Assembly: GCA_964627605.1 (NCBI GenBank)
Contig: CAZVGZ010000001.1
Location: 47,325-111,324, forward strand
Length of the DNA stretch: 64,000 nt
Reading direction: 5' to 3'
From: an uncultured bacterium
Lineage (GTDB): Bacteria > Latescibacterota > MWCZ01 > CAZVGZ01
Made by a program: the position numbers and the translations under genes. The notes beneath the pieces were generated by a model. It was not told the DNA's origin and did no database searches. It saw only the letters and a list, made by a program, of their open reading frames with translations. The stretch's first letter is position 1; each line of letters opens with the position of its first letter. Below are positions 58,065 to 59,156 of the stretch, in pieces.

Positions 58065-59156
58065 ATGCGCAAACGCACCTTGTTTTGGCCCATCCCAGCG
58101 CTTTCGGTCGTCTGGTTGATCACAGCAATGGCAGGCGACGAAACCCCAAAAACAGCCGTGAGGCGACCGGCCCACCATACGGATGGTGGGTTCAGAATCC
58201 CCTGGGACGCATCCACTGACAAAAGCTTCTCCCAACTGATGCGCTGGCGATGGGACGTATGGACAAAAGGCAGACCCGACACCCCACCCGCAGCAAGCTT
58301 CCCCCTCGCCAAGATCAACCACGCCCTCATCGACACAAACCCTACGCAGTTTACAGCGACGTGGATCGGTCACGCCACGCTTTTGGTGCAGATGGACGGC
58401 CTAAACATCCTTACCGATCCGATCTTTTCGGACAGAGCGTCGCCTATATCGTGGTTTGGGCCCAAACGGGTATCCGATCTGCCGGTCGATTTAGACAGCC
58501 TTCCACCGATTGATGTGGTGATAATCTCTCACGACCACTACGATCATCTTGACGCGCCGACTATCGACCGTCTAGGTGACAGACCCCACTATCTGGTTCC
58601 GCTGGGCTTCAAAGAGTGGCTAGCTGATCGCGGGATCATCAGGAAAGTGACCGAACTCGACTGGTGGGAAGGCGTGGAGATTAGAGGCGTGCGGTTCGTC
58701 GCGACGCCGTCGCAGCACTGGTGCGCGCGTTCCCACATTGACCGCAACGAGCGGCTGTGAGCGTCGTGGGCGGCCATCGGCCCAACAGCAAAGCTCTTTT
58801 TCGGCGGTGATACTGGCTACTTTGGTGGGTTTGAAGAGATTGGCCGTAGGTTCGGTCCGTTTGATCTAGTGGCGCTGCCGATCGGTGACTACGAGCCGCG
58901 CTGGTTCATGAAAAACTCCCACATGAACCCCAATGAGGCGGTTAGGGCGTTCCAAACCCTGGGGGGCAGAACGCTAGTCGGTATACATTGGGGAACGTTT
59001 CGTCTCACCGATGAGGATATGCTTGAACCGCCGGTTCGCACTCGTGCCGCGTGGGATTCGGTCGGCCTGCCTCCTGAGCGGCTGTGGGTTCTGAAGCATG
59101 GTGAGTCGAGGGTAGTGCCCACGACGGGTGAAAGTCCAGACGTGACTCTGCAATGA
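58065..59156 (+). pseudogene. NAPE-PLD-like MBL-fold metallo-hydrolase with an in-frame TGA at 58758-58760 replacing a conserved Trp (called as ORFs 58035-58760 and 58869-59156 in the same frame)
   Basis: Signal-peptide-like N-terminus (MRKRTLFWPIPALSVVWLITAMAG). Has the HxHxDH motif (ISHDHYDHLD). Reading runs …ATPSQHWCARSHIDRNERL TGA ASWAAIGPTAKLFFGGDTGYFGGFEEIGRRFGPFDLVALPIGDYEPRWFM… Eukaryotic NAPE-PLD has …[24 protein letters not shown]… at this position, so the TGA sits exactly at the conserved W. Confidence 0.6.

Follow-up and report, generated by a model that had tools for sequence, protein, structure and literature searches.

The gene at positions 58065–59156 (+) of the window, the 64,000-nt stretch of DNA that was analysed, is very probably a recent nonsense pseudogene that is fixed in a near-clonal population and still decaying. 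Its frame for a NAPE-PLD-like hydrolase is interrupted by a single TGA at a tryptophan position invariant among the homologues, and part of the population carries a second premature stop upstream. Judged from its sequence, the locus is a pseudogene of the NAPE-PLD-like branch of MBL-fold hydrolases and not a functional member of that branch.

Translation from the ATG at 58065 gave a frame of 363 codons that includes one internal stop, a TGA, and closes with a terminal TGA at 59154–59156. The N-terminus is a hydrophobic segment of signal or anchor type. Both ORFs that had been assigned to one frame by the first-pass annotation (58035–58760 and 58869–59156) were recovered inside the 58065–59156 translation. 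The ATG at 58065, from which public gene callers predict a 231-aa product, is likelier to be the start than the TTG at 58035, which overlaps the upstream gene. Joined across the stop, the protein matched the Pfam profile Lactamase_B_2 (PF12706) end to end (profile positions 2–200 of 200, E = 9.5e-42) and human NAPE-PLD (PDB 4qn9; residues 37–352, E = 5.2e-88). Profile and solved structure alike are thus matched over the full length, and the ORF for the complete domain is interrupted by the TGA at codon 232. When 5.8 billion clustered proteins were searched, homologues came up in their thousands, the best being only 42–54% identical to the hydrolase. For conservation analysis, the hydrolase frame was aligned with the 120 best database homologues (42–54% identical).

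The premature TGA (58758–58760, +) stands in the context CTG TGA GCG, one base from TGG. All 120 homologues have W in its column and L in the column before it. In the alignment with 4qn9, NERL(stop)ASW of the hydrolase frame lies opposite NKVLWGSW of human NAPE-PLD. It had been claimed that the TGA falls on the conserved Trp of the VLWGSW block, that a single TGG to TGA transition accounts for it and that the flanking catalytic motifs are intact. All of this was confirmed, the stop being aligned with the W of the human block and all seven metal-ligand residues being encoded in the frame. H156, H158, D160, H218, D249 and H308 are present and invariant in the 120 homologues; H161 is present too and is H in 97 of the 120. 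The ligands of a binuclear metal site (HxHxDH, H218 as the downstream His, D249 as the bridging Asp and H308 as the C-terminal His) are therefore complete in the frame, the last two after the stop.

Under standard decoding, translation yields a truncated product of 231 aa (58065–58757, +; homologue median 345 aa), which keeps HxHxDH and H218 and loses D249 and H308. The undecoded 3' part (codons 233–363; 58761–59153, +) is still in frame and holds the motifs GGDTGY (D249) and IHWGTF (H308). The role of ligands of the D249 and H308 type is established in MBL-fold enzymes. From this, the 231-aa product, which is without these two ligands and the final third of the fold, is expected to be catalytically dead. 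The 95-aa ORF at 58869–59156 (start GTG 58869) covers only the tail of the 3' part. A split enzyme assembled from the 231-aa and 95-aa ORFs was considered and rejected: the gap of 36 codons, which holds D249 of GGDTGY, belongs to neither, so the 95-aa ORF would be unable to complement the 231-aa product.

For comparison between samples, public contigs carrying exact neighbouring proteins or hydrolase fragments were gathered and their DNA was then compared. All 16 distinct records that cover 58758–58760 read TGA. They are consensus-level assemblies from ENA, NCBI, Logan and JGI, made with different assemblers. Re-assemblies of at least 8 BioSamples come from ENA; to these are added ERZ27245254, built separately with MEGAHIT, three NCBI metagenome assemblies, one Logan assembly and the JGI metagenomes 3300022225, 3300035202 and 3300048637. 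Included is the Candidatus Latescibacterota MAG GCA_030740095.1, which NCBI gives as the source of the identical neighbouring proteins. A seeming 98.8% variant (L016) was traced to a scaffold gap of Ns and not to sequence divergence. The stop is real in the genome, and the base-call or assembly error that had been offered as one explanation is refuted at consensus level by TGA in 16 of 16 assemblies from many samples and four data providers. In the literature, no mention was found for the sample and accession identifiers of these records.

The use of TGA was tallied in the 45 other likely genes of the window. Their 18,094 codons include 337 TGG and no in-frame TGA, and TGA is the commonest stop, terminating 18 of the 45. 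Where TGA-terminated genes could be compared with profiles, the stops lie at the expected ends: an SDR protein covers positions 1–236 of 236 of adh_short_C2 and ends 7 residues later, a GFO/IDH/MocA protein completes its profile (position 218 of 218) with five residues left to its TGA, and a URO-D protein is matched to position 344 of 346. An alternative code (tables 4 and 25) is contradicted by these data, and the organism (Candidatus Latescibacterota) uses the standard code. The first-pass annotation had judged global UGA=Trp recoding unlikely on the ground that other genes of the window stop at TGA, and the tally bears out both statements. Same-frame ORF pairs across a TGA at 187–933, 10215–11576 and 51511–53406 were rejected as split genes, being either unrelated neighbours or pairs that include a non-coding ORF. 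Window G+C is 56% and the gene set is of free-living type; known code-4 and code-25 lineages are unlike this. The window also holds a 354-aa class I aminoacyl-tRNA synthetase of the Trp/Tyr family (30196–31260, -; PF00579, E = 4.5e-70), ordinary-looking, ending in TGA and by its length probably TrpRS.

Codon 109 of the hydrolase gene (58389–58391, +), a CAG for Gln, is TAG in a sub-population through C58389T. The residue is Q in 120 of 120 homologues. The change was found in 3 of 13 records (L019, L020 and L021, corresponding to SAMN21575215, SAMN18055982 and GCA_024711645.1), and the other 10 keep C. In the TAG109 allele, the 5' part is split into gene calls of 108 and 122 aa. No SNP other than C58389T was found in the 1,092 nt of the gene. 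Variants in neighbouring genes are synonymous, missense or, in one case, an in-frame 6-bp deletion, with no stop or frameshift among them. Relaxed constraint is thus indicated by one such event, the loss of Q109 in 3 of 13 records, with no excess of deviations otherwise.

The Latescibacterota population is near-clonal. All contigs together, over about 12.4 kb, show no more than 15 SNP sites, besides one in-frame deletion of 6 bp. A segment of about 12 kb (51511–63842; loci L001–L021 and L183–L185) is >99.9% identical over many BioSamples and at least 4 JGI metagenomes. The 6-bp deletion (59590–59595, L016) lies in the thioredoxin-domain gene (-) and leaves 740 aa instead of 742; being in frame, it contrasts with the stop-creating changes in the adjacent hydrolase gene. 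In a peptidase C26/glutamine amidotransferase gene (56567–57307, -), four SNPs (P41A, D32V, E29V and L26R) fall within 45 nt (57187–57231). They occur in loci L002 and L014, of one assembly lineage; elsewhere the 12 kb hardly varies. A short tract of recombination or a mis-assembly could account for this cluster, or the true start codon may lie downstream of it.

For dating of the lesion, deviations at conserved positions were counted. With the stop left out, 4 of 86 columns conserved to at least 90% deviate in the hydrolase (R65V, P139L, A275D and T348S); with the stop counted, there are five deviations in 87 conserved columns. Intact homologues have a mean of 2.2 ± 1.9 such deviations, and 14 of the 120 have five or more. 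No frameshifts were found in the hydrolase frame. As the gene is not measurably decayed, its inactivation looks recent. The very recent inactivation that had been proposed as one reading is supported by the fixed TGA, the ligands lost from the product, the second nonsense change still segregating and the otherwise undegraded frame.

No sister genome with TGG was found in the 5.8-billion-protein search (best 54% identity). The best hit was 48% in a scan of GTDB genomes with the neighbouring gene, and 53% in a metagenome scan that was saturated by the generic pattern HDHYDHLD. The best full-length homologue (P0001) is not syntenic with the hydrolase locus. Since no relative closer than 54% protein identity was found, we infer the ancestral TGG (Trp232) from the conservation of the family.

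Upstream of the hydrolase gene lies a gene for a 6-carboxy/6-pyruvoyl-tetrahydropterin synthase (PTPS; 57620–58057, +; PF01242). As it ends 7 nt before the hydrolase ATG, the two genes probably form one transcription unit. The downstream gene (59201–61429, -; PF03190), for a thioredoxin-domain (YyaL/DsbH-like) protein of 742 aa, is convergent, so the hydrolase would be the last gene of its unit and its stop would be without polar effect. The NCBI pipeline apparently gave the hydrolase locus no protein, that is, treated it as a pseudogene: in MAG GCA_030740095.1 the flanking proteins MDP6124469 and MDP6124470 are consecutive, with no gene called between them.

Several other features of the window were recorded. 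A 131-aa ORF at 63447–63842 (-) matches, with residues 25–89, positions 2–66 of the 301-position Pfam profile Sulfatase (E = 9.7e-10), past which come first unrelated sequence and next a non-coding stretch of about 280 nt. The ORF resembles the 5' remnant of a sulfatase gene cut short by a deletion; if so, the hydrolase has another gene relic about 4 kb away. Two overlapping ORFs at 54838–55410 and 55359–55694 (-; 190 and 111 aa, different frames) have no Pfam match, and public gene callers list them separately; either a single gene with a frameshift or small proteins specific to the lineage could account for them. Sulfatase, glycoside-hydrolase (GH2, 2296–5121) and sugar-kinase genes abound in the neighbourhood. 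A 1,500-aa ORF at 23179–27681 (-), whose only Pfam match is the C-terminal domain of an FtsX-like permease (about residues 1236–1344), is predicted to encode a very large, otherwise unannotated membrane protein.

The predicted fold of the 79 nt around and 3' of the TGA is weaker than that of shuffled controls (z = +1.16), and by this comparison no stable, SECIS-like or read-through-stimulating RNA structure was found 3' of the TGA. No match to an Rfam family was found in the window, nor were tRNA genes, including suppressor tRNA genes. The +4 base after the TGA is G, not A. The column is W in all 120 homologues and never Cys, and there is no SECIS hairpin, which is unlike a selenoprotein. Selenocysteine insertion and structure-stimulated read-through were accordingly rejected (Trp column, no 3' structure, no Rfam match). 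As to programmed read-through, the relatives found, none closer than 54%, lack the stop, and the UGA-G context is unstructured. A-to-I mRNA editing of UGA to UGG was also rejected; known bacterial TadA mRNA editing sites need a UACG loop context, and the context here is GUGAGC.

The most probable course of events starts from a zinc-dependent NAPE-PLD-like hydrolase in which an ancestral TGG (Trp232) would have become TGA by one G-to-A transition. With the standard code, translation would end at codon 232 and leave a 231-residue, presumably catalytically dead fragment. As the last gene of its transcription unit, the hydrolase could take the stop without polar cost. The TGA would then have become fixed in the near-clonal, widely sampled population. 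With selection on the hydrolase gone, a sub-lineage may have gained the second stop, at Gln109 (CAG to TAG). In this chain the TGA, its fixation, the standard code, the ligand loss and the second stop are observed. Probably no full-length hydrolase of consequence is made.

What counts against a pseudogene is that the ORF is intact save for the TGA, with no frameshift and every other invariant residue preserved, and that a still-used gene would look alike. The allele might then be a leaky hypomorph, in which the ordinary tRNA-Trp (CCA) misreads the UGA at times and a little full-length wild-type enzyme is made for low-level use. As the lost codon is a Trp codon, such misreading would restore the wild-type enzyme, and the allele may be a hypomorph and not a null. 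UGA is the leakiest bacterial stop, and tRNA-Trp misreads it in E. coli and B. subtilis, reportedly favoured by A at +4 (PMC5289835). Diverse bacteria have UGA-reading variants of tRNA-Trp whose anticodon stem is 4 bp long (PMC13092985), and the 131 codons downstream are intact and in frame, with all ligands present. The leaky hypomorph is nevertheless unlikely. Here the +4 base is G and no stimulatory structure was found. Efficient suppression is hard to reconcile with TGA being the commonest stop of the window, used by 18 of 45 genes. The upstream TAG, which would prevent any full-length product, is tolerated in a sub-lineage, and recency explains the intact frame equally well. Of the low-level Trp-inserting read-through that had been suggested earlier, the general premise stands, bacterial UGA being somewhat leaky, while the G at +4, the lack of 3' structure and the tolerated upstream TAG speak against its use at this site. 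An elaborated form, in which the TGA allele is a hypomorph retained deliberately or fortuitously, through tRNA-Trp or a genome-encoded tRNA-Trp with a 4-bp stem, and the upstream TAG is a selected 'second lock', is quite improbable. If true, with a leaky UGA followed by a tighter stop, the locus would be a natural snapshot of stepwise, selection-driven silencing by stops of increasing stringency, which would be modestly interesting.

Selection could also have acted in favour of the loss itself. Inactivation of an exported lipid or phosphodiester hydrolase would then have been advantageous, and the TAG would have been selected against a residual read-through product or a costly 231-aa fragment. 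The one polymorphism in the 1,092 nt of the gene also creates a stop, and does so at an invariant residue. Only about 3–4% of the possible substitutions in the hydrolase ORF would have this effect, and the first stop is fixed in every sample. Such adaptive loss is nonetheless very unlikely: the TAG is a single event, for which a prior of 3–4% is weak evidence, and hitch-hiking or drift can fix alleles in a near-clonal population. Hardly any weight is left for a sequencing or assembly artefact with TGG in the true genome. The two codons are one base apart, but the 16 records from at least 8 BioSamples and 3 JGI metagenomes, of different assemblers and providers, are 100% identical over the gene, C58389T aside, and all read TGA. 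Recoding has a negligible probability as well, whether as code 4 (UGA=Trp) or code 25 (UGA=Gly) throughout the genome or as a selenocysteine at this site alone. Code 4 would put a TGA at a Trp column, but no in-frame TGA stands against 337 TGG in 18,094 codons, and TGA ends 18 of the 45 genes where their C-termini are expected. For selenocysteine, the column is never Cys, and neither a SECIS-like hairpin nor an Rfam match was found.

For annotation, the recent nonsense pseudogene means that the 231-aa and 95-aa 'MBL-fold' calls are fragments of one dead gene. They should not be counted as functional hydrolases when the metabolism of this Latescibacterota population is reconstructed. The locus may also serve as a worked example of how pseudogene, recoding and assembly error can be told apart with public assemblies alone; the steps were the same stop in 16 records, a tally of stop codons in neighbouring genes and a second segregating nonsense allele.

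Among known enzymes, the hydrolase resembles human NAPE-PLD (N-acyl-phosphatidylethanolamine-hydrolysing phospholipase D) over its full length. Its ligands align with human H185, H187, D189, H190, H253, D284 and H343 (numbering from the alignment), and the blocks PIGxYEPRWFM and HWGTF are common to it and the NAPE-PLD family. Unlike the human enzyme, it has a stop at the invariant Trp of the family (human W267, numbering from the alignment) and makes no enzyme under standard decoding. The bacterial homologues, annotated as 'MBL fold metallo-hydrolase' (PF12706), are at best 42–54% identical to it and not syntenic. Among recoded genes, A1 of coliphage Q-beta is a case of programmed UGA read-through with Trp insertion. 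In known programmed cases, read-through adds residues beyond the normal stop of an already complete protein, and relatives keep that stop. In contrast to Q-beta A1, the UGA of the hydrolase splits the catalytic domain and is accompanied by a second stop; none of the relatives found has this UGA, and neither context nor structure favours its read-through. The likeness to UGA misreading by tRNA-Trp is that the UGA, if read, would yield a functional longer protein (PMC5289835). With UGA=Trp codes (table 4; tRNA-Trp in PMC13092985) the locus shares a TGA at a Trp column; it differs in that the window uses TGA as a stop and has no other in-frame TGA. The closest parallel is the ordinary 'internal stop' pseudogene of NCBI annotation, with a single premature stop in an otherwise intact ORF and further disabling mutations. 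An early nonsense pseudogene that arose by a single transition is an ordinary and already known phenomenon, and against other nonsense pseudogenes the hydrolase is notable only for its very early stage and its fixation across many samples.
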